Source: a virus (lineage: Duplodnaviria > Heunggongvirae > Uroviricota > Caudoviricetes). From it: a stretch of DNA of 64,000 bases. Shown here piece after piece: positions 1 through 52,290 of the stretch; positions within the stretch are counted from its first letter, which is position 1, and every line of letters starts with the position of its first letter. The translations under genes were made by a program, and so were the position numbers. Location: IMG/VR virus record IMGVR_UViG_2724679073_000003; one strand, 5' to 3'. The notes beneath the pieces were generated by a model, which worked only from the letters and a program-made list of their open reading frames with translations, was not told the DNA's origin and made no database searches.

Positions 1-1349
1 GTATGCCGACACGGGAGATCCCCGGCGCAATTGCCAACTATTTCATGATAACCAGGCGTTTTTATACCCGAACAGATAAGGCTGTGATCAACAAGCTACT
101 GATAGCCGAGATCAGGGATTATTTGATTGAACAAGGACGTCTACGTTACGCAACAGTGGCAGCAGAAATGAGAAAGGAGGCACATAGAATGACCAGTAAT
201 AATTTGAATGTTAAAAAACCAGCATCTGTTGCTTCAGCTACGCCATCACCAGCTGTGAATGTTATCTCCAACACTGGAGATACAATCGACAGCCAGACGC
301 TGTTAAAGATGGTCAATGAAGCGCGTAAGTTATGTGGGGAACCAGAGGTTCGGAACAACAAATTCATCGAAAAAATACTCGACGAATTAGAAGGTGAGGA
401 CGGTTACACAAAAAGTGCAACCGTGCCGCCAGGTGGCGGTACGCCTATGGTTGTCATAACCATGACCTACAAACAAGCCCTGCGAGTTGCCGCGCGCGAG
501 TCAAAAGCGGTCCGCCGTTCGCTACATACCATGATTCAGGCATTGGAACCTATAAATGTTGAAAATCATCCTGATGAAATTCCCGTTCTGGAATGGCAGG
601 GAGTACGCGTCGTGACAACCGAGACTCTTGCTAGAGGGTATGGCACTACACCTACTCGTATTCAGCAGAACTACAATCGCAATGAAGAACGATTTGTAGA
701 GGGTAAACACTTCTTTAAAATCAAAGGAGATGAGATAAAAAGTTTGCGACTATCTTTTAGCGAGTTGCAAATTTCCCCCAAGACCAGATCCTTAATACTC
801 TGGACCGAACGCGGAGCGGCACGCATGTCTAAGATCGTAGACACAGAGCAAGCGTGGGCATTCTTTGAAAAACTGGAAGACAGCTACTTCCGGCAAAAAG
901 AACAGCAACCGGTCGCAATCCCCCAGACGCTTCCCGAAGCTCTGCGCCTGGCTGCCGAGCTGGCTGAACAAAAGCAGCTACTGGAACAGAAAACCCACCA
1001 GCTAAATCAACAGCTGGTGGCCGCAGCCCCTAAAGTCGATTTTGCCGACCGGGTATCAGCGGCTAATGGAATCCTGATCGGGAACTTTGCAAAGGTCGTT
1101 GGACTTAAGCAAAACGCCCTTTTCTCATGGTTGCGCCAGAACGGCATTCTCATGGCTTTTGGTGCGCGCAAAAACGTACCGCGCCAGCAGTACATTAACG
1201 CCGGGTATTTCACGGTGAAAGAAGTGGTGCTGGATGATGAAAATGGCTACCAGATACGGCTGACGCCCCAATTAACGGGTAAAGGCCAGCAGTGGTTAAC
1301 TCGCAAGCTACTTGATGCTGGTTTGTTAAAACCAGTAGCAATAGGTTAA
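1..1349 (+). CDS. ant: Antirepressor Ant (immI-type), 5'-truncated at window edge, KilAC-type C-terminal domain
   Basis: ORF 3..1349 open to window start; N-terminal TREIPGAIANYFMI aligns to about residue 25 of the ant copy at 50294; C-terminal ~170 aa nearly identical to that copy; lies directly upstream of kilA-repL. Confidence 0.75.
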   Translation, partial: MPTREIPGAIANYFMITRRFYTRTDKAVINKLLIAEIRDYLIEQGRLRYATVAAEMRKEAHRMTSNNLNVKKPASVASATPSPAVNVISNTGDTIDSQTLLKMVNEARKLCGEPEVRNNKFIEKILDELEGEDGYTKSATVPPGGGTPMVVITMTYKQALRVAARESKAVRRSLHTMIQALEPINVENHPDEIPVLEWQGVRVVTTETLARGYGTTPTRIQQNYNRNEERFVEGKHFFKIKGDEIKSLRLSFSELQISPKTRSLILWTERGAARMSKIVDTEQAWAFFEKLEDSYFRQKEQQPVAIPQTLPEALRLAAELAEQKQLLEQKTHQLNQQLVAAAPKVDFADRVSAANGILIGNFAKVVGLKQNALFSWLRQNGILMAFGARKNVPRQQYINAGYFTVKEVVLDDENGYQIRLTPQLTGKGQQWLTRKLLDAGLLKPVAIG

Positions 1350-1362
1350 CAAAAGAAAAAAA

Positions 1363-1386
1363 CCTGCCAGCAAACTGGCAGGTTTC
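1363..1386 (+). terminator. Rho-independent terminator after ant
   Basis: Hairpin CCTGCCAG-CAAA-CTGGCAGG followed by TTTCT. Confidence 0.55.
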
Positions 1387-1427
1387 TGAGCAGATCGTCC
1401 AACCCGATCTGGATCGAGTCAGAAAAA

Positions 1428-1444
1428 TTTGCTCTAATAAATTT
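1428..1444 (+). promoter_or_regulatory. C1 operator upstream of kilA (Op53-like)
   Basis: TTTGCTCTAATAAATTT matches 16/17 of the P1 C1 operator consensus ATTGCTCTAATAAATTT; 70 bp upstream of kilA start. Confidence 0.7.
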
Positions 1445-1513
1445 CGTTTTCTAAGTGCAAAGAATCACCATTTCGAGCTGGTGATTGAAGGTTGATGCAA
1501 ATTTGGAGAAAAA

Positions 1514-2314
1514 ATGCAACAAACATTCAATGCGGATATGAATATATCAAACCTTCATCAAAATGTCGATCCTTCAACCACTCTGCCCGTTATTTGTGGT
1601 GTTGAAATTACGACCGACCGCGCTGGCCGTTACAACCTTAATGCTCTACACAGAGCGAGCGGACTCGGTGCCCATAAAGCGCCAGCTCAATGGCTAAGAA
1701 CGCTGTCAGCAAAACAGCTCATCGAAGAGCTTGAAAAAGAAACTATGCAGAATTGCATAGTTTCGTTCGAAGGCCGTGGCGGCGGCACTTTTGCCCATGA
1801 ATTGCTCGCTGTGGAGTACGCAGGCTGGATTTCTCCCGCGTTTCGGCTGAAGGTAAACCAGACATTTATCGACTATCGAGCCGGAAGATTACAACCTGCT
1901 ATTCCGCAGAGTCTCCCTGAAGCTCTCCGTTTGGCTGCCGACCTGGCAGAGCAAAAGCAACGGCTGGAGCAAAAAATGCTTATGGATGCACCTAAAGTCG
2001 AATTCGCCGAACGCGTTGCTACCGCCAGCGGGGTTCTAATCGGCAACTATGCCAAAGTGCTCGGCCTGGGCCAAAACTATCTCTTCACCTGGTTGCGTGA
2101 TAACGGAATTCTGATCGCAACCGGTGAACGCAGGAACGTCCCCAAACAAGAATACATATCCCGTGGGTATTTCACCCTTAAAGAAACCGTGATCGATACA
2201 AGCAATGGAAGCAGGATTTCTTTCACGACTCGTATAACCGGCAAAGGTCAGCAGTGGCTGATGAAGCGATTGCTTGATGCTGGTGTGCTGGTACCTGTCG
2301 CGGCAACGCGCTAA
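1514..2314 (+). CDS. kilA: KilA (KilA-N domain plus KilAC C-terminal domain), 266 aa
   Basis: Length matches P1 KilA; C-terminal region homologous to Ant C-termini; RBS GGAGAAAAA before ATG; followed by repL. Confidence 0.85.
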   Translation: MQQTFNADMNISNLHQNVDPSTTLPVICGVEITTDRAGRYNLNALHRASGLGAHKAPAQWLRTLSAKQLIEELEKETMQNCIVSFEGRGGGTFAHELLAVEYAGWISPAFRLKVNQTFIDYRAGRLQPAIPQSLPEALRLAADLAEQKQRLEQKMLMDAPKVEFAERVATASGVLIGNYAKVLGLGQNYLFTWLRDNGILIATGERRNVPKQEYISRGYFTLKETVIDTSNGSRISFTTRITGKGQQWLMKRLLDAGVLVPVAATR

Positions 2315-2343
2315 CAGACGTAGTAAGAACCACCAGCATTGTA

Positions 2344-3189
2344 ATGCTGGCTAAAGTCACTTTCCTGAGCTGTATAACGATGAGCGATTTTACTTTTTCT
2401 GGCTATGAATTGGCCTGCTTTGTAACACACTCCGGTCTATCCCGTAGCGCCGGGCATATCCTGTCGCAATGTGCAAATCTAGCGGCAACAACCAGTGAAT
2501 ACTTCATTCACAAGCCTCACCGCCTGATCGCGGCAGAAACTGGTTATAGCCAATCAACCGTCGTTCGTGCATTCCGTGAAGCTGTAAACAAAGGAATTCT
2601 GTCTGTAGAGATTGTTATCGGCGATCACCGTGAACGTCGCGCTAACCTGTACCGGTTTACGCCATCCTTTTTGGCCTTCGCACAACAAGCCAAAAATGCG
2701 CTGATTGAAAGCAAATTAAAGATCTCTTCAGCGGCAACCAAGGTTAAAGCTGTTCTCGCTAAGACATTGGCTTTATTTAATTTTTTATCCACACCCCCAT
2801 GTCAAAATGATACCCCCTCCCCCTGTCAGGATGACGTGGCAATAAAGAATAAGAAGTCACAAGTTAAAAAAACAAAAAGATCAGTTTCCGGCGGTGCCGG
2901 AACGAGCAGACTCAAAAAATTGACTTCATGGATCGCTGAGGCAAAAGCAAAGGCTGACAATCTGCGGTTATCCAAAAAACGCGCTCAAAAACATGAGTTC
3001 AAGCAGAAAGTAGAGGCGGCAGCGCGGAAATATGCTTACCTGAAGGACAAGCGTTCTCCTGATATTGGCGGGATATCAAACCTCGATAATCTGCCGCATT
3101 GCATGACGGTAAACGAAGCTCTTAATGCGGTTTTAGCCAAAAATAAAGATAACGAACAATGGGGTATACCGGCAGGATTCAGAGGGTGA
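2344..3189 (+). CDS. repL: RepL lytic replication initiator, 281 aa (oriL expected inside)
   Basis: Position downstream of kilA, length identical to P1 RepL, basic lysine-rich C-terminal half. Confidence 0.8.
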   Translation: MLAKVTFLSCITMSDFTFSGYELACFVTHSGLSRSAGHILSQCANLAATTSEYFIHKPHRLIAAETGYSQSTVVRAFREAVNKGILSVEIVIGDHRERRANLYRFTPSFLAFAQQAKNALIESKLKISSAATKVKAVLAKTLALFNFLSTPPCQNDTPSPCQDDVAIKNKKSQVKKTKRSVSGGAGTSRLKKLTSWIAEAKAKADNLRLSKKRAQKHEFKQKVEAAARKYAYLKDKRSPDIGGISNLDNLPHCMTVNEALNAVLAKNKDNEQWGIPAGFRG

Positions 3190-3239
3190 TAGATTGCTCT
3201 AATCTGGAGTCACCTGGCGTTTTCAGTTTGAGGTCGGAG

Positions 3240-3485
3240 ATGCAATCTGATTTTTTACAGTTAGCGATCGCTTTTGCAGGATATGTTTGTATTGGCTTCT
3301 GTGTATACATGATCAGCCGAAAAATGCTTGTCGATATCGACCGCAAAGAACGAGCAGAGGAGATCTTAGTATGGATTTTCTTTGGCGCGGTCTGGCCATT
3401 AGGGATCATGTTTGCTGCAACATTTCTTCTGATGTGGATATTCACCCTTCCAGGTGATTTCTATAGAAAAAAAGCCAGACATTGA
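3240..3485 (+). CDS. Small membrane protein (two hydrophobic helices)
   Basis: RBS GAGGTCGGAG before ATG at 3240; hydrophobic stretches LAIAFAGYVCIGFCVYMI and ILVWIFFGAVWPLGIMFAATFLLMWIF. Confidence 0.45.
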   Translation: MQSDFLQLAIAFAGYVCIGFCVYMISRKMLVDIDRKERAEEILVWIFFGAVWPLGIMFAATFLLMWIFTLPGDFYRKKARH

Positions 3486-3509
3486 TACAATCGTTGCGGG
3501 TGCTTGAGG

Positions 3510-3544
3510 CTATCTGCTTCAGGCATTACCCGAAAAGCAGATAG
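3510..3544. terminator. Convergent hairpin between + and - operons
   Basis: 10-bp stem CTATCTGCTT / AAGCAGATAG with 15-nt loop. Confidence 0.45.
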
Positions 3545-3667
3545 AAGAAAGCCCCAGATAACATTACGCGTCCTGCAAGACGCTTAACATTAATCTGAGG
3601 CCATATCTATGCTTAGCATACGTAGATTAACCCTCTCCCCTTTTAAGGAGCAAGGAATTTTTTACTG

Positions 3668-4264
3668 CTATGCCGCATTTCCAATTATGGATTCAGCGAC
3701 CAGAACAACCCCATGCTTACTTCGATCTGGGTGTTCACTCCATATCTCGGATTCAGGAATACTTACCCCGTCATAGCAAACACGTTCGCCGTCAAACGGG
3801 TAATACTGAGCGGCATCGGTGTCAAGGATAAACACTTTTAGCTCGGAAGAGCGACGGGCGATGTGTTGCCAAAGAGCTTTTCCACCTTCGTATTGCTCAT
3901 TATCACTGAGCAAAACAACACCAGCTTTTGAGGCTACGGTTTCGTAAACAAAAGTAGCTAAACCGACATCCCGGACGGTTCCATCAACCACGATACCTTC
4001 AATCTGGGCAACATCGCTATCCTCCCAGAACTTCCTTACCAGTACGCCTTCAAGCAGCGGGCGACGTTGAAGTTCAAGAGTAGCGACAACCTTATGGCGC
4101 ATATCACCATCGATAATAGAAGGCGCAGCCTCTATTACAGCTGCAAATGGGGTTTTGGAATCCCATATAACCTGGTAAAGAACACCTTGGATGGTAACTC
4201 CGTCCAGGATCGAAAATCGACGAGCGACAGTACCCGGGGAGTACGACATTGGAATCACAGCCAT
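3668..4264 (-). CDS. Hypothetical protein (structural/morphogenetic block)
   Basis: ORF with RBS AGGGGGAC upstream of internal ATG at 4264; last gene of the leftward head-tail operon. Confidence 0.5.
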   Translation of the reverse strand: MAVIPMSYSPGTVARRFSILDGVTIQGVLYQVIWDSKTPFAAVIEAAPSIIDGDMRHKVVATLELQRRPLLEGVLVRKFWEDSDVAQIEGIVVDGTVRDVGLATFVYETVASKAGVVLLSDNEQYEGGKALWQHIARRSSELKVFILDTDAAQYYPFDGERVCYDGVSIPESEIWSEHPDRSKHGVVLVAESIIGNAA

Positions 4265-8048: not shown

Positions 8049-9776
8049 TTACTCAGAGTCACCGGCATCAATCGTGTCGCCGCTAATGAAGTTAAGCCCG
8101 CCTTTTTTGGCCATTGTCAGCGTTACACGAGTGAAGTAATCAGCGCCGTTGCGTGGGTGCATATCGTTGATAGCCGAACCCCACAGCGTGGTACGGTTGA
8201 CCAGCGCCGGAGTGGTCGGATGCTGGAACGGGATGGCCGGGACAGCATCACCAGTCACGAAGCCTGCTTTACCTGGATTTTCATCACGGACGTAGCACAG
8301 CACATCCATCGAGCTGAACTGAATGTTCTCTGTCGTTAAGTTCTTACAAATACCAGCAGGTACTTCGTACACTTTCACGTTACCGAACAGGGTACCGATG
8401 TAGTGAACATACGGAGTCTGGATATAGTCTTCGGCTGGCTGGAAGAAATCCTTCGGCAACTGTTTGAAGAAAGATGCTGCATCAGCACCAGCAAACATCC
8501 CCATCGCACCAGAAGATTTAACGCGCTCAATAATGTCGCGATATACAGTCTGGAATTTGCCACGAATGATGGTTGCCCATACATCAAAGGACTGGTTAAC
8601 CGGCAGAGCGATGTCAAAGGTGTCGGTCGCAAGAGTGCGCCAGATCATGATGCGAAGACGCAGCATATCCTGTTCATGAGACAGGTATTCCTTCAGGGTG
8701 CGGAACTGTAGGGAACCCAGGTCCAGACCAAATTCACGCTGTGCTTCATACGCCGCCTGTACCGTGTGCTCAGCCGCGATAACGAACTGACTTGGGAACA
8801 GGGTGTATTTCTTCATTTCGTGGTTGATCAGCGGGATCAGCTCAGGAGCGGCTTCAATATTGATTTCCGTCTCAATTGCGATCTCAGTGCCTTTATCCGG
8901 CGCTTTGGAGAACGACAGGGCAATCTGACCAATGTTGTAGTTCAGAGAGCAGGTAACAGTGATTTGCTCACCAGCAGCATTAGTAAACGAGTGAAGTAGG
9001 CTGCCGGAACCGTTATCAACAACAGACTTAATACGGTTAACGTAGATGTTAGTGCGACCTTTTCGGATTGGTACATTCTGGCCTTCGAAGTCTTCCATCT
9101 TGAAGGTTGCGGTTTTGCTGGTGCCATCGGAGCTTGCCACCAGCACATAGCGGCGACGTAACTGGCTGTACACACCGACGGATTGCATGTCCAGAACATC
9201 ACCAGCAGCATAAGAACCAAAAGAGGAACCTGCCACGTTAAAGACTTCATAGATGTCGGACTGGTCACGCGTAACCGGAATGAAGGTACACGCATCAGCG
9301 GTAGCTGCCCCCAACTGAACAGGCAGGATCATCGCGAGGAATAAAGGCAGACGCATAACACCGTCAGAAACGCTCATCATCTCTGCTGCGACGGATTCCA
9401 GCATCGCTTTATTAGTGGCATCCATGCTATTGCGGGTGGACTCAATCAGGCAGTTTTCCAGCGTCTGGTGGCAGGAGGCCAGAATTTCCGGACGCGGCAT
9501 AGATTTATGTGCTGCGGCGTAGTCAGCCAGTGCACTTGCCCACGCTGTAGCGATTTGAGCGGTGGCATTATCAGAGATACCCGCAAAAACCGGGTCTTTA
9601 CGTGCAGCTTCAAGGATAGATGCGGCACGCGCGGCATCATCTTTAATGAATTGGTTATCAGTACCGAACTGCGCAGTGCTTGCCCAGCCAAGCACAGCTT
9701 TAGAGCGTTTTGCGATATCTGCAATACGATTCTGGTATTCGCGTAAGTTACTCAATTTACTCTTCCTTAAACACAA
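8049..9776 (-). CDS. Putative major head protein (P1 gene 23 position), 575 aa
   Basis: Large structural ORF immediately adjacent to parS, as gene 23 is in P1; size about 62 kDa. Confidence 0.45.
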   Translation of the reverse strand: MCLRKSKLSNLREYQNRIADIAKRSKAVLGWASTAQFGTDNQFIKDDAARAASILEAARKDPVFAGISDNATAQIATAWASALADYAAAHKSMPRPEILASCHQTLENCLIESTRNSMDATNKAMLESVAAEMMSVSDGVMRLPLFLAMILPVQLGAATADACTFIPVTRDQSDIYEVFNVAGSSFGSYAAGDVLDMQSVGVYSQLRRRYVLVASSDGTSKTATFKMEDFEGQNVPIRKGRTNIYVNRIKSVVDNGSGSLLHSFTNAAGEQITVTCSLNYNIGQIALSFSKAPDKGTEIAIETEINIEAAPELIPLINHEMKKYTLFPSQFVIAAEHTVQAAYEAQREFGLDLGSLQFRTLKEYLSHEQDMLRLRIMIWRTLATDTFDIALPVNQSFDVWATIIRGKFQTVYRDIIERVKSSGAMGMFAGADAASFFKQLPKDFFQPAEDYIQTPYVHYIGTLFGNVKVYEVPAGICKNLTTENIQFSSMDVLCYVRDENPGKAGFVTGDAVPAIPFQHPTTPALVNRTTLWGSAINDMHPRNGADYFTRVTLTMAKKGGLNFISGDTIDAGDSE

Positions 9777-9814
9777 GGCACTTGTGTGAATCCCTTTTCG
9801 GAAGAGATTTTATT

Positions 9815-9835
9815 GAAAGTCACTTGTTGACTTTC
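9815..9835 (-). promoter_or_regulatory. Perfect palindrome GAAAGTCA-N5-TGACTTTC upstream of the head/tail operon (candidate Lpa-dependent late promoter element)
   Basis: 8-bp inverted repeat about 40 bp upstream of the gene-23 start, followed in transcription direction by AATAAAAT -10-like box. Confidence 0.35.
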
Positions 9836-9889
9836 TCGTGACAAGCAATTTTTTTATTTTTTTCGGGAGTAGGGGAGGAAGGTAAAATC

Positions 9890-9982
9890 CAAGGTGAAAT
9901 CGTGGCGATTTCACCTTGAAATTTTAGAGAGATTTACTTTAAAAACAGTAGGTTAATAGTGAAATTTGAATGGCGAAAGTTT
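9890..9982. other. parS: parS partition site (ParB box A heptamers ATTTCAC and box B hexamers TCGCCA)
   Basis: GTGAAATCGTGGCGATTTCAC ... TAGTGAAATTTGAATGGCGAAAG directly downstream of parB stop. Confidence 0.75.
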
Positions 9983-47059: not shown

Positions 47060-48253
47060 GTGACCTGGGACGATCACAAGAAGAATTTTGCTCGCCTGGC
47101 GCGAGATGGTGGTTACACCATCGCACAGTATGCCGCCGAGTTTAATCTTAACCCTAATACCGCACGTCGTTATCTCCGTGCCTTCAAAGAAGACACCAGG
47201 ACAGCGGACAGCCGCAAGCCAAATAAGCCAGTCAGGAAGCCACTAAAAAGCATGATCATTGATCACTCTAATGATCAACATGCAGGTGATCATATTGCAG
47301 CTGAAATAGCTGAAAAACAAAGAGTTAATGCTGTTGTCAGTGCCGCAGTCGAGAACGCTAAGCGCCAAAATAAGCGCATAAATGATCGTTCTGATGATCA
47401 TGACGTGATCACCCGCGCCCACCGTACCTTACGTGATCGCCTGGAACGCGACACCCTGGATGATGATGGTGAACGCTTTGAATTCGAAGCTGGCGATTAC
47501 CTGATAGATAACGTTGAAGCGCGGAAGGCCGCTCGCGCTATGTTGCGTCGGTCCGGGGCCGATGTTCTGGAAACCACTCTTCTGGAAAAGTCTCTTTCTC
47601 ATCTCCTTATGCTGGAGAACGCCAGGGATACGTGTATTCGCCTGGTGCAGGAAATGCACGAGCAGCAAAAAGACGATGATGAAGGTACTCCGCCTGAATA
47701 CCGTATCGCGAGCATGCTAAACAGCTGTTCCGCGCAGATAAGCAGCCTGATCAACACCATTTACAGCATCCGGAATAACTATCGAAAAGAAAGCCGGGAG
47801 GCGGAAAAGCACGCTTTGTCTATGGGGCAAGCTGGCATTGTTAAGCTGGCATACGAACGAAAGCGTGAAAATAACTGGTCAGTGCTGGAAGCAGCTGAAT
47901 TCATCGAGGCGCATGGCGGGAAAGTGCCGCCCCTGATGCTGGAGCAAATCAAAGCCGATCTGCGTGCTCCGAAGACCAATACCGATGATGAGGAAAGGCA
48001 AACAGCCGTCGGTGGCCCTTCTCTTGAAGATCTGGACAAAGTTGCGCGAGAACGGGCCGCCAACCGCCGCGCCGATGCCGCATTGTGGATTGAGCAGCGT
48101 AGGGAAGAAATCGCCGATATCGTTGATACAGGCGGTTATGGAGATGTTGATACTGAAGGTGTATCAAACGAACCATGGCTGGAACAAGACCTGGACGAAG
48201 ACGAGGAGGAAGACGAAGAAGTTACCCGCAAGCTATACGGGGATGATGATTAA
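47060..48253 (+). CDS. pacA: Terminase small subunit PacA, 397 aa
   Basis: GTG start with RBS AAGGAAG; length equals P1 PacA; contains pac repeats; acidic C-terminus. Confidence 0.85.
47252..47412 (+). other. pac cleavage site: clustered TGATCA/G hexamers with GATC Dam sites inside pacA
   Basis: CATGATCATTGATCACTCTAATGATCAACATGCAGGTGATCAT ... AATGATCGTTCTGATGATCATGACGTGATCAC. Confidence 0.75.
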
Positions 48254-49737
48254 TGGCCAGAAGTTGCGTAACGGATCCACGTTGGCGCGAGCTGGTGGCG
48301 CTATATCGTTATGACTGGATTGCGGCCGCTGATGTTTTGTTCGGCAAAACACCTACCTGGCAGCAGGATCTGATTATTGAGTCTGTGCAGGAACAGGGTA
48401 GCAAGACATCTGTTTCGTCTGGCCACGGTACCGGGAAATCAGACATGACTTCTATCATGATCATGTTGTTCATAATCATGTATCCCGGTGCCCGAGCCAT
48501 TATCGTTGCGAACAAAATTCAGCAGGTAATGACCGGTATATTCAAGTACATCAAGATAAACTGGGCTACTGCCACCAGCCGTTTTCCATGGCTTGCTGAT
48601 TATTTTGTTCTGACAGAAACCGCTTTCTATGAGGTTACTGGTAAAGGTGTATGGACTGTAGTACCGAAGGGCTTTCGTCTGGGAAGTGAAGAAGCTCTCG
48701 CCGGTGAACACGCAGATCATCTTCTGTATATTATCGATGAAGCCTCCGGTGTCAGTGATAGAGCTTTCGGTATCATCACCGGTGCTCTTACCGGACAGGA
48801 TAACCGCATCTTATTACTGTCACAGCCTACACGCCCAAGCGGCTATTTCTACGATACTCACCATAAACTGGCCAAGCGTCCTGGTAACCCTGATGGCGTT
48901 TATACGGCGATCACGCTTAACAGTGAGGAATCACCGCTGGTAACGCCAGCATTTATCAAAATGAAGCTGGCGGAGTACGGCGGGCGTGATAACCCTATGT
49001 ACATGATTAAGGTACGCGGACTATTCCCTAAATCACAGGATGGCTTCCTTCTTGGACGTGATGAGGTTGAACGTGCGACGCGGCGGAAAGTCAAGATTGC
49101 CAAAGGATGGGGCTGGCTTGCATGTGTGGACGTTGCTGGTGGTACGGGACGGGATAAGTCCGTTATCAATATCATGATGGTGTCCGGCCAGAGAAATAAA
49201 CGCCGTGTAATCAACTATCGAATGCTGGAATACACAGACGTTACAGAAACGCAGCTTGCCGCCAAAATTTTCGCAGAATGTAATCCTGAGCGATTCCCAA
49301 ATATCACCATAGCGATAGACGGCGATGGGCTGGGTAAAGCAACGGCGGATCTGATGTACGAGTATTATGGTATTACCGTACAGCGTATACGCTGGGGTAA
49401 AAAGATGCATAGTCGTGAAGATAAGAGCCTGTACTTTGATAAACGTGCTTATGCCAACGTTCAAGCCGCAGAGGCCGTAAAATCTGGTCGTATGAGACTG
49501 GATAAGGGTAATGAAACTATTGAGGAAGCGTCGAAAATCCCTGTAGGGATTAACTCCGCAGGTCAATGGAAGGTGATGAGTAAGGAGGATATGAAGAAAA
49601 AACTCAACCTGCACTCACCAGACCATTGGGATACATATTGTTTCGCTATGCTGGCGGATTATGTTCCCCAGGATGAAGTGCTTAGCGTCGAAGACGAAGC
49701 GCAGGTTGATGAAGCTCTGGCATGGCTTAATGAATGA
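48253..49737 (+). CDS. pacB: Terminase large subunit PacB, 494 aa
   Basis: ATGA-coupled to pacA; length equals P1 PacB; Walker A-like SGHGTGKS. Confidence 0.88.
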
Positions 49738-49740
49738 ATA

Positions 49741-49757
49741 TTTGCTCTAATAAATTG
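49741..49757 (+). promoter_or_regulatory. C1 operator (Op51-like) heading immI-like cassette
   Basis: TTTGCTCTAATAAATTG 15/17. Confidence 0.65.
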
Positions 49758-49895
49758 TGTTTTTTAACTGCCGATGTTACATTGAACCTGACCTCTTGCG
49801 CCTTGAGGCATTTTCGGTTTATGCTTATCAGGCACCTCATTAAAACGGGTGCCGGGATTGGCCTCCCGCTTAAGTCTAAGGCGATACAGACGCCG

Positions 49896-49939
49896 CTCGC
49901 GTCTTTTTTTGTATCGGCGTACACGCACACCTCTACAAT
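49896..49939 (+). promoter_or_regulatory. Sigma70-like promoter directly upstream of c4-like RNA
   Basis: TTGTAT-N19-TACAAT. Confidence 0.4.
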
Positions 49940-49940
49940 G

Positions 49941-50015
49941 GTGGGCTGTATGGGGCTACCTTCGGGTAGGCTGGTTACCTTGGACGCCAGTAAGGCCAAC
50001 TCCGTACAGTCCACC
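49941..50015 (+). ncRNA. c4-like antisense RNA candidate (about 75 nt)
   Basis: Terminal stem GGTGGGCTGTATGG / CCGTACAGTCCACC enclosing UUCG-loop hairpin; CCTTGGACG complementary (one G-U) to the icd RBS region CGTCTAAGG. Confidence 0.45.
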
Positions 50016-50075
50016 GCCAGCAAGATTGGTCTCTTCTGCGGTGGTTACATACCAACGTCTAAGGAGGCTGCCAAT

Positions 50076-50297
50076 ATGGCTACTATCCCTACCCCAACTC
50101 ATCCTGAATTTATCTGGCGCTTTTACTCCTGCCAAAAACGTCACTATCACTTCGTTATTGCACCGACAGAAGATGAGGCTCGCTCTCAGCTTCCGGATGC
50201 TCCCTGCATTTTCTCCGCCCGTTTTTCCACTGATTTGCGCAATTCTCTCAGTTACTGGTGCCTCCCTGTAAACGCTTCTGCTCAGGAGGGACTATGA
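50076..50297 (+). CDS. icd: Icd-like small protein, 73 aa, translationally coupled to ant
   Basis: RBS AAGGAGG before ATG 50076; stop overlaps ant start (ATGA). Confidence 0.6.
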   Translation: MATIPTPTHPEFIWRFYSCQKRHYHFVIAPTEDEARSQLPDAPCIFSARFSTDLRNSLSYWCLPVNASAQEGL

Positions 50298-51406
50298 GAA
50301 CGTCATTAGTCACCCGTGAAGAGATGATCGAGGCAATTGAACAGCATACCGCCTGTATCAGTACCAGGGATATACCAGGCGTTATTGCCAACTACTTCAT
50401 GATCACCAAACAACTTTACCGGAGAAAGGACAAAAACGCGGTTCACCGCATTCTGCTAACCGATATCCGTGAATACCTGCTCGAACAGGGTCATCTGAAT
50501 TACGCAACCGTCGCAGCCGAAGCACGCAAGGAGGCACACAGAATGAAAGCAACTAACGTTAAATCAGAAAAAATTTATGCACCTTCAGTTCAGGAATCGG
50601 AACTGGTGGTTGTTCAGAATCAGCCGGATGAAATTCCCGTTCTGGAGTGGCAGGGGGTGCGTGTAGTGACAACCGAGACTCTTGCTAGAGGGTATGGGAC
50701 CGAAACTAATAACATCAAAGTTAACTATACGCGTAATGCTGATCGCTTTGAGGAAGGTAAACATTACTTTCTACTAACTGGTTCAAAATTAAAAGAATTG
50801 AAGGACAAGGTTACTCAAAGTAACTTAGTCGCACCGCGAGCAAAGCACCTCACTCTCTGGACGGAACGCGGCGCAGCCCGCCACGCTAAAATGCTCGAAA
50901 CCGATCAGGCATGGGCATTCTTTGAAAAACTGGAAGACAGCTACTTCCGGCAAAAAGAACAGCAACCGGTTGCAATCCCCCAGACGCTTCCAGAAGCTCT
51001 GCGCCTGGCTGCCGAACTGGCTGAACAAAAGCAGCTTCTGGAACAGAAAGCCCACCAGCTAAATCAGCAGCTGGTGGCCGCCGCTCCTAAAGTCGATTTT
51101 GCCGACCGGGTATCAGTAGCTAAAGGGATCCTGATTGGGAATTTTGCAAAGGTTGTTGGACTTAAGCAAAACGCGCTGTTTGTCTGGTTACGGGAGAACG
51201 GCATCCTGATAGCGTCCGGTGGACGTAAAAATGTGCCGTTCCAGCAGTACATCAACGCGGGGTATTTCACGGTGAAAGAAGTGGTACTGGATGATGAAGA
51301 TGGCTACCAGATACGGTTGACGCCTCAATTAACGGGTAAAGGCCAGCAGTGGTTGACGCGTAAACTGCTCGATGCTGGCTTGTTAAAACCGGTGGCGGCT
51401 GAATAA
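50294..51406 (+). CDS. ant: Antirepressor Ant, second copy, KilAC C-terminal domain
   Basis: RBS AGGAGGG before ATG 50294; C-terminal 170 aa nearly identical to the ant at the window start. Confidence 0.8.
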   Translation: MRTSLVTREEMIEAIEQHTACISTRDIPGVIANYFMITKQLYRRKDKNAVHRILLTDIREYLLEQGHLNYATVAAEARKEAHRMKATNVKSEKIYAPSVQESELVVVQNQPDEIPVLEWQGVRVVTTETLARGYGTETNNIKVNYTRNADRFEEGKHYFLLTGSKLKELKDKVTQSNLVAPRAKHLTLWTERGAARHAKMLETDQAWAFFEKLEDSYFRQKEQQPVAIPQTLPEALRLAAELAEQKQLLEQKAHQLNQQLVAAAPKVDFADRVSVAKGILIGNFAKVVGLKQNALFVWLRENGILIASGGRKNVPFQQYINAGYFTVKEVVLDDEDGYQIRLTPQLTGKGQQWLTRKLLDAGLLKPVAAE

Positions 51407-51413
51407 TGGAAGA

Positions 51414-51435
51414 ATGCCCGGTTGATGCCGGGCAT
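51414..51435. terminator. Bidirectional hairpin between convergent ant and c1
   Basis: ATGCCCGG-TTGATG-CCGGGCAT. Confidence 0.6.
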
Positions 51436-51438
51436 AAT

Positions 51439-52290
51439 TTATTGCGCGCTTTCGGGGTTGTCGTTTACTGGCTGCCCCTTCTTGGTTTTACGGCTGCGCG
51501 TAACTGATGCGGCTGATTTGACCTTTTTCTCTTCGCGAGTGATGGCAATTTGTTTTTTTACATTTTCAATATCTGCCAGGCGATATATTTTTGCTTGCGG
51601 CCAGCGGTCGCAGATGATCGGTTCTATGGAGTCATAAAGGCTAAATTTTGCTTTTTCGAATTCACCGTTGATGATAATTCCATCACGGAGAGTTTCATCG
51701 CAGATAAACACGCCACACAGCGGCACATGGTAACTAACTGATTTACCGTTATTGTAGTTAGGACTACTGGAGATGTAGTGAACGCGCAGCATTGTTTCGC
51801 TAAAGCCGTGTACGCGCATACGGAATTTTTCATCCTCCGGGTACTGCTTCATTAGCTCTTTTGTTGCTTCCAGGTTCTCTATGTATTTCGCACTGTGCTC
51901 ATTGAACCCCGCGCTTTTTTGGATGCGAATGTCCTTATCAATCAGATGAATAATGCGGCCAGCGGTCATGTTGACGCTGTTCACAGCTTCTGTCTGATAA
52001 GTTGTAACCTTGCGCACACCGCGAAGGATGTTAGGCACTGGATATAAAATAGTCTTTGGGATATTGAGGTCTGGGTACTGTTCCAGTTCCCGCGCCATTA
52101 AAGTCCATTTATCAATTTCAGCCTGAATGCTGTCAGTTTCTTTGAACGGTAGAACGACAACCGGGCGTACAGGACGACCGTCGCTGGCTGTATCAACGTG
52201 TTGGGCGCGTGCAACAGCTTTTTTTAGAAAGAGATCCCTGAAGCTGACGAACTCCTGGTACAGTTGTTCGCCGTAGACATAATTTATCAT
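51439..52290 (-). CDS. c1: C1 repressor of lysis, 283 aa
   Basis: Begins MINYVYGEQLYQEFVSFRDLFLKK..., recognised as P1 C1; same length. Confidence 0.95.
   Translation of the reverse strand: MINYVYGEQLYQEFVSFRDLFLKKAVARAQHVDTASDGRPVRPVVVLPFKETDSIQAEIDKWTLMARELEQYPDLNIPKTILYPVPNILRGVRKVTTYQTEAVNSVNMTAGRIIHLIDKDIRIQKSAGFNEHSAKYIENLEATKELMKQYPEDEKFRMRVHGFSETMLRVHYISSSPNYNNGKSVSYHVPLCGVFICDETLRDGIIINGEFEKAKFSLYDSIEPIICDRWPQAKIYRLADIENVKKQIAITREEKKVKSAASVTRSRKTKKGQPVNDNPESAQ

Follow-up and report, generated by a model that had tools for sequence, protein, structure and literature searches.

A second immunity module of the immI type occupies the space between pacB and c1 in the 64,000-nucleotide (nt) IMG/VR virus record IMGVR_UViG_2724679073_000003, a P1-family phage-plasmid (Punavirus) that we refer to as the window. 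The insert is real, intact and common, and it carries a C4 specificity of its own; the kind of system to which it belongs is already known. We consider it probable (roughly 0.7) that it is a complete and functional second module placed in the pacB-c1 spacer. While 24 base pairs (bp) separate the stop codons of pacB and c1 in P1, about 1.7 kilobases (kb; 49738-51438) separate them in the window, and this DNA contains, in order, a C1 operator, an IsrK-type leader, a C4 RNA, the a2/b2 target sites, icd, and ant1 with ant2 nested inside it. An initial annotation, made from the letters of the sequence, had proposed a full immI-like cassette at this place, and element-by-element homology with P1 immI, from the operator through ant, bears the proposal out. 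The features of the region are as follows (coordinates of the window):

48253-49737, plus strand: pacB, with its stop at 49737.
49741-49757, plus strand: C1 operator-like site TTTGCTCTAATAAATTG, matching the consensus at 15 of 17 positions.
49755-49783, plus strand: candidate C1-controlled promoter TTGTGT-N17-TACATT, the equivalent of P51a (P2c4), whose -35 element overlaps the operator.
49796-49825, plus strand: candidate leader promoter TTGCGC-N18-TATGCT, with a predicted start at ~49832, the 5' end of the IsrK model.
49832-49909, plus strand: IsrK-type leader RNA (Rfam RF01394, 60.8 bits, gathering threshold 50).
49858-49864, plus strand: a1, UUGGCCU, inside the leader, pairing with a'.
49874-49881, plus strand: b1, GUCUAAGG, inside the leader, pairing with b'.
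49934-50021, plus strand: C4 antisense RNA (Rfam RF01695, 75.9 bits, gathering threshold 45).
49978-49985, plus strand: b', CCUUGGAC(G), in the hairpin-2 loop of C4.
49993-49999, plus strand: a', AGGCCAA, in a single-stranded bulge of C4.
50026-50032, plus strand: a2, UUGGUCU, in the icd leader, pairing with a' (7-bp duplex).
50056-50064, plus strand: b2, CGUCUAAGG, in the icd leader, pairing with b' (9-bp duplex).
50076-50297, plus strand: icd, encoding a 73-amino acid (aa) Icd-like cell-division inhibitor (phrog_1426), the coupling open reading frame for ant.
50294-51406, plus strand: ant1, encoding 370 aa with ORF6N and KilAC domains (phrog_63, like P1 Ant1).
51414-51435, no strand assigned: GC-rich hairpin with a 9-bp stem, between the stop codons of ant and c1.
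51439-52290, minus strand: c1, convergent with ant.

When 13 cassettes including that of P1 were aligned, the order of elements proved identical from the operator through b2 and the Shine-Dalgarno sequence to icd: operator, operator-overlapping promoter, second promoter, a1/b1 leader with its terminator hairpin, C4, a2, b2 and icd. The operator-like site begins 4 nt past the pacB stop, where the initial annotation had placed it. It aligns without gaps to P1 Op51 (Oc4), is positionally homologous to the operators of P1 and P7, and is kept in 13/13 aligned cassettes. Every P1-family cassette has such a site and the homologue in a Shiga toxin (Stx) phage, F039, has none; this contrast speaks for a module connected to the C1 circuit. 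Across the window, 14 C1 operator-like sites with three mismatches or fewer were seen, against 0.38 expected by chance. They are scattered (for instance at 1428, 16880, 20156/20167, 35886 and 52849), and those at 20156-20183 form an overlapping pair of bivalent appearance.

Two candidate promoters precede the leader. The operator-proximal one occupies the same position as the annotated P2c4 of P1. The second agrees in position and spacing with the strong TTGACT-N18-TATATT found before isrK in the Stx2 phage F039, and it is kept as TTGCGT-N18-TATCCT in plasmid NZ_CP098199 (locus L006), a relative considered below. A different promoter, TTGTAT-N19-TACAAT, had been put forward initially. That motif does exist at 49909-49939; however, its promoter role is not credible. 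Its -10 element TACAAT reaches as far as the first base of the C4 stem, and a transcript starting from it would miss the 5' strand of the stem; the spacer is 19 nt long, and sister cassettes with 21 additional nt at this point break the arrangement. TTGT(A/G)T is the conserved tail of the leader terminator, and the candidates upstream of the leader are better ones.

The leader RNA, which the initial annotation missed, ends in an intrinsic terminator made of a hairpin (49888-49904) and a U-run. Folded in isolation it is not unusually stable (z = -1.0). In the minimum-energy fold of the precursor, a1 and b1 are paired with a' and b', and the spacing between a1 and a' is 135-141 nt. The mature C4 RNA is predicted to span ~49940-50016, and its 77-nt core folds according to the C4 model (-41.8 kcal/mol, z = -3.7); all of the 650 cells scored in the internal helices of C4 are paired, with nine compensatory pairs. 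In P1, b' and a' of C4 pair with b2, which lies over the icd ribosome-binding site, and with a2, and a1/b1 copies lie upstream. The same arrangement is found in the insert, where b2 overlaps the icd Shine-Dalgarno sequence AAGGAGG (50061-50067). The suggestion of a stem-enclosed, c4-like RNA complementary to the icd ribosome-binding region was thus well founded: the RNA matches RF01695, and the b':b2 duplex overlaps AAGGAGG.

An open reading frame of 187 aa runs from 49734 in frame into icd and matches Pfam Phage_ASH (E = 3.6e-7). It was rejected as coding; the ash-like frame is open only in the C4 type of the window cassette, and in the majority of the other leaders it is closed by stop codons 6-11 codons before icd. 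RefSeq calls of an "ash family protein" overlie the IsrK/C4 leader at 49734-50075 (plus strand) of the window and also at 2222-2452 of locus L005 and 9528-10004 of locus L008, and they look like apparent translations of an RNA gene.

The paired RNA elements change together. Sixty-one unique leaders were gathered from IMG/VR loci and reference phages. They comprise at least 12 distinct (b', a') types, with P7 adding one more, and a1/b1 and a2/b2 change in step with them throughout. Formal pair counts were made on 25 distinct leaders of the IsrK class, the control being the same partner slid by 1-3 columns. For a1:a' and b1:b' together, 100% of 375 cells are paired, and 7 of 15 pairs have changed on both sides; the figures for a':a2 and b':b2 are the same (375 of 375; 7/15). 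In the slid controls pairing falls to 24-55%. Because the leaders are related and amount to some five independent types, these counts stand for a few clean coordinated switches, not for hundreds of independent events.

The code of the window cassette, b' CCUUGGAC and a' AGGCCAA, differs at three positions per site from that of the canonical immI of the relatives L006 and L051 (CCUUUUGC/GUUCCAA). P1 and P7, classically heteroimmune, are separated by fewer changes, two nt in a' and two in b', than the 3+3 that separate the window cassette from the canonical type. Predicted duplexes reflect the difference: cognate pairs reach -21 to -22.5 kcal/mol, while window/canonical cross-pairs are near -10; the cognate duplex of the window cassette (-22.5 kcal/mol) compares with -7.8 to -13.3 kcal/mol against the other 11 types. 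Its C4 loops differ from those of P1, of P7 and of the relatives' canonical immI, and match their own targets only. Together with the covariation of a1/a'/a2 and b1/b'/b2, this supports the view that the pacB-c1 cassette would carry a second, orthogonal immunity specificity. One option raised initially, that of two immunity specificities, fits these code differences and the weak predicted cross-pairing.

Icd is identical to P1 Icd at 53 of 73 residues and to the Icd of a relative at 60 of 73. The stop codon of icd and the start codon of ant overlap in ATGA (50294-50297), and a nested in-frame ant2 start lies at 50543 (codon 84) behind an AAGGAGG of its own, as annotated in P1; a 73-aa frame with a strong ribosome-binding site and an ATGA-coupled ant had been read correctly from the start. 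The cassette Ant is close to P1 Ant over its first 90 aa and in the C-terminal KilAC part, and in the last 130 aa the two are nearly identical. A structure search found no solved structure matching Ant. Downstream, the hairpin at 51414-51435 is likely a terminator that parts the convergent ant and c1.

The insert is not the only ant locus of the window, which begins inside another:

3-1349, plus strand: canonical immI ant, of which only the 3' part lies within the window.
1514-2314, plus strand: kilA, downstream of this first ant.
2344-3189, plus strand: repL, downstream of kilA.

This is the position of immI in P1, as had been surmised, and the gene order agrees. The closest relative of the window start is plasmid NZ_CP098199 (L006; 99.3% over positions 1-3200), whose canonical ant (L006 2440-3849) is preceded by an operator, an IsrK-type leader, C4 and icd. 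Whether c4 and icd precede the first ant, a check proposed in the initial annotation, is hence answered in relatives; for the window genome itself, a canonical c4 and icd are predicted from them. The canonical immI leader of the lineage is of the IsrK type and not of the c4-a1b1 type of P1. The canonical-position Ant of the lineage is a 470-aa composite of P1-type central segment, ORF6N and KilAC, compared with 347 aa in P1. The domains are split accordingly: the first Ant combines the central segment with ORF6N, the cassette Ant has ORF6N without the segment, and P1 Ant the segment without ORF6N. The first Ant does contain an additional segment, as initially noted, although its length is ~100 aa and not ~70. 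The description of the last ~500 bp of the two genes as near-identical repeats does not hold: the shared 3' part is 79.7% identical over 818 bp, the 3' ends are ~87% identical, with values of ~81-93% when the final 500 bp are taken in 100-nt blocks, and the longest exact run is 59 bp.

The insert is widespread. It is found in phages RCS47, JL22 and vB_EcoM-673R5 and in 268 PLSDB plasmids (coverage of at least 80%); among complete E. coli genomes, 248 have it and 308 have the uninterrupted P1-type junction. In an assembly collection, 41 index blocks contain the identical 370-aa Ant, and at all six of the places listed the genes follow the order pacB, icd, ant, c1. The same junctions in phages, plasmids, complete genomes and separate assemblies exclude an assembly chimera, which the initial annotation had left as an option. 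At least five C4 codes occur at the pacB-c1 position.

Earlier mentions are brief. Venturini et al. 2019 mentioned two short open reading frames and ant between pacB and c1 of pTZ20_1P (PMC6906374), and the RCS47 record annotates ant at this junction. In the literature searched, the sources on RCS47 and pTZ20_1P note the insert in passing, and no paper describes its operator, RNAs or specificity. Hence the element is a new or at least under-described immI-type module whose RNA anatomy is not described in that literature.

Further cassettes were seen at other places and in other arrangements. A third position for C4-icd-ant cassettes lies near cre, ~6-8 kb from the pacB-c1 cassette (loci L077, L079, L080, L090, L091 and others). 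These near-cre cassettes probably match the icd-ant homologues reported in region RD-1 of pSvP1 (PMC6906374). Three cassettes, each with a code of its own, lie on contig 646311924_000007 (97.9 kb), and genome 2534681832 contains four cassettes. Tandem cassettes by pacB occur in L015, where a single type is present twice (icd starts at 2500 and 4066), and in L300, where a cassette of type A, that of the window, is followed by one of P1-like type.

Several points weigh against taking the insert as a functional module with a specificity separate from that of the canonical locus. The c4 and icd of the window genome's own canonical immI lie beyond the window, and orthogonality is judged from L006 and from the pair L016/L051. 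No two cassettes of one genome share a code in the 38 isolate genomes with 2-4 cassettes, a result that has no statistical power, as the sets of types at the different genome positions barely overlap; hence it shows heterotypy and cannot show avoidance of identical codes. The operator-proximal promoter is a weak match to the consensus, and for this reason a promoter scan picked up none there. The use of the promoters, the processing of the RNAs, the binding of Ant to C1 and the ecological role are predictions by homology for this cassette. Finally, the cassette Ant lacks the ~100-aa central segment common to P1 Ant and the first Ant, and has ORF6N in its place, so that binding to C1 is not assured. 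Whether an Ant of this kind still acts on C1 is the main uncertainty.

This last point bears on the strongest of the other explanations, which we regard as unlikely, if worth keeping in mind: the module would be active, but its Ant would target the repressors of other resident prophages or switch on another set of genes, so that it would serve in cross-talk or warfare and not in P1 immunity proper. The exchange of the P1-type central segment for ORF6N would suit such a role, and the same IsrK-C4 leader drives Rha- or Ant-type genes in phages of the Stx, SfV and phiP27 types; in Gifsy-1, AnrP acts on antQ (PMC4825925). However, the N-terminal 90 aa, the KilAC part, the phrog_63 assignment and the nesting of Ant2 within Ant1 are all P1-like, and the cassette has retained its C1 operator, which is missing from non-P1 homologues.

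It is less plausible still that only the RNA matters, that is, that C4 is kept as a determinant of superinfection immunity while the icd and ant of the cassette are permanently off or dispensable. P1 lysogens make C4 constitutively, and the C4 of the insert would be constitutive in lysogens as well; moreover, the occurrence of five C4 codes at one position suggests selection on the RNA code. Against this stand the intact icd and ant, the presence of the identical 370-aa Ant in so many assembly blocks, and the conservation of the coupling signals and of the nested ant2 start; no frameshifted copies of icd or ant were seen among the IMG/VR loci examined. That the insert results from chimeric assembly, or from a duplication of the canonical immI that is recent and prone to recombination, as two ant genes ~50 kb apart with a similar 3' end and a 59-bp exact run might suggest, has next to no probability, since the same junctions recur in independent assemblies and the two cassettes are only ~70-80% identical in DNA and differ in their C4 codes.

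For a functional second immI-type module, which we favour, a mechanism can be drawn by homology with the immI loci of P1 and P7. In a lysogen, C1 bound to the operator would shut the operator-overlapping promoter. The weaker leader promoter would still fire; transcripts that stop at the terminator would yield an IsrK-like RNA of ~78 nt, and read-through transcripts would be processed to the ~77-nt C4. Pairing of b' and a' with b2, at the icd ribosome-binding site, and with a2 would leave icd untranslated and, because ant is translationally coupled to icd through ATGA, no antirepressor would be made. Upon infection or loss of C1, transcription would outrun C4, so that Icd, Ant1 and Ant2 would be made and Ant would inactivate C1. 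In the unprocessed precursor, a1 and b1 of the leader would mask a' and b', and free leader RNA may titrate C4 in trans as an anti-antisense RNA, an activity shown experimentally for IsrK of Gifsy-1.

If the cassette and the canonical immI use orthogonal codes, the phage would possess two antirepressor genes, each under a separate lock, and would make two immunity RNAs. Once resident, it would silence incoming relatives that use either code; as an invader, it could overcome immunity in residents lacking either code. Textbook accounts divide P1 immunity among three loci, immC, immI and immT. In complete E. coli genomes, about four in ten of the P1-like elements carry an additional immI between pacB and c1, and a third cassette is found near cre in some of them, the RNA code being different in each. 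Should these cassettes work as in P1 and P7, they would set rules of superinfection, induction and coexistence among the P1-like phage-plasmids that spread resistance genes, and the RNA codes could be read directly off the sequence.

A wider generalization is tentative, and we would sooner expect it to need revision than to hold as it stands: P1-family elements would carry 2-4 C4/Ant modules with mutually orthogonal codes, located at the immI site, between pacB and c1, and close to cre; a' and b' would form a combinatorial immunity barcode; and the IsrK-type leader would open each lock. If true, the barcode would decide which relatives superinfect, induce or coexist with which, and "orf45" of Gifsy-1 would be reinterpreted as a C4 RNA. 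In any case, the data connect the small RNAs of the Salmonella IsrK family with a1/b1, the sites that partner C4 antisense RNAs.

Other RNA genes of the window were recorded in passing. The sok antitoxin RNA of a hok/sok-type locus lies downstream of repL at 3498-3672 (plus strand; RF01794, 94.7 bits). Four transfer RNA genes were detected with Rfam, three of them clustered at 20839-21082 and the fourth 1.4 kb further on at 22526-22598 (plus strand).

Comparison with known systems places the insert closest to immI of P1. The two share the order of elements, a C1 operator overlapping the first promoter, the C4 fold, a b2 site over the icd ribosome-binding site, the relation of a'/b' to a1/b1 and a2/b2, a 73-aa icd, the ATGA coupling and an ant2 start at codon 84. 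They differ in location, P1 immI lying between sim and kilA and the window cassette between pacB and c1; in the class of the leader, which is isrK (RF01394) in the window cassette and c4-a1b1 (RF03163) in P1; in the a'/b' code; and in Ant, where ORF6N replaces the central segment of P1. In DNA, identity to P1 immI is ~70% across icd and the 5' part of ant. The immI locus of P7 provides a precedent, as a few changes in a' and b', with matching changes in a1, a2, b1 and b2, create a new specificity. P7, however, has one cassette at the canonical site, whereas the window phage has a second cassette, with a more divergent code, in the same genome. The insert of RCS47 and pTZ20_1P is alike in insertion point and gene content, and that of RCS47 is ~90% identical overall; its C4 code (b' CCUUUGAC, a' GUCUCAA) nevertheless differs from that of the window cassette.

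In Stx-converting and other lambdoid phages (for example F039, SfV and phiP27), an IsrK-type RNA is likewise followed by C4, and the a/b sites co-vary. Unlike in the window, their IsrK-C4 leaders stand before Rha-family or other Ant genes, with a strong consensus promoter and no C1 operator. In F039 (locus L303), the region 2500-3389 contains such a leader, with another co-varying a/b code, before a gene for a 216-aa Rha-family protein that begins with the Icd-like residues MATIPA; no C1 operator is present. IsrK-C4 leaders also occur in ~90 other lambdoid phage records. Scanning of genome contigs with a degenerate 14-base IsrK pattern gave chance matches in unrelated phyla only, and Gifsy-1 was not recovered when the phage collection was searched with the IsrK consensus.

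The Gifsy-1 prophage of Salmonella offers the experimental parallel. There, IsrK acts in trans to activate translation of an antirepressor gene coupled through AUGA, by pairing with a region ~130 nt downstream, as proven by compensatory mutations (PMC4825925). This distance is close to the a1-a' spacing of the window cassette. The isrK-orf45-anrP locus resembles the window cassette in having an IsrK-family leader with a terminator, a paired region downstream and a coupled antirepressor-like gene, while a C1 operator and icd are not reported for it (PMC4825925). The paired region was treated as "orf45", and neither P1 nor C4 is mentioned (PMC4825925). Yet several published observations, as given in the text of that paper, fit the view that "orf45" is a homologue of C4 RNA: its nucleotides are conserved and its amino acids are not, a processed RNA of ~80 nt (STnc1160) arises from it, and it pairs with the middle of IsrK (PMC4825925).

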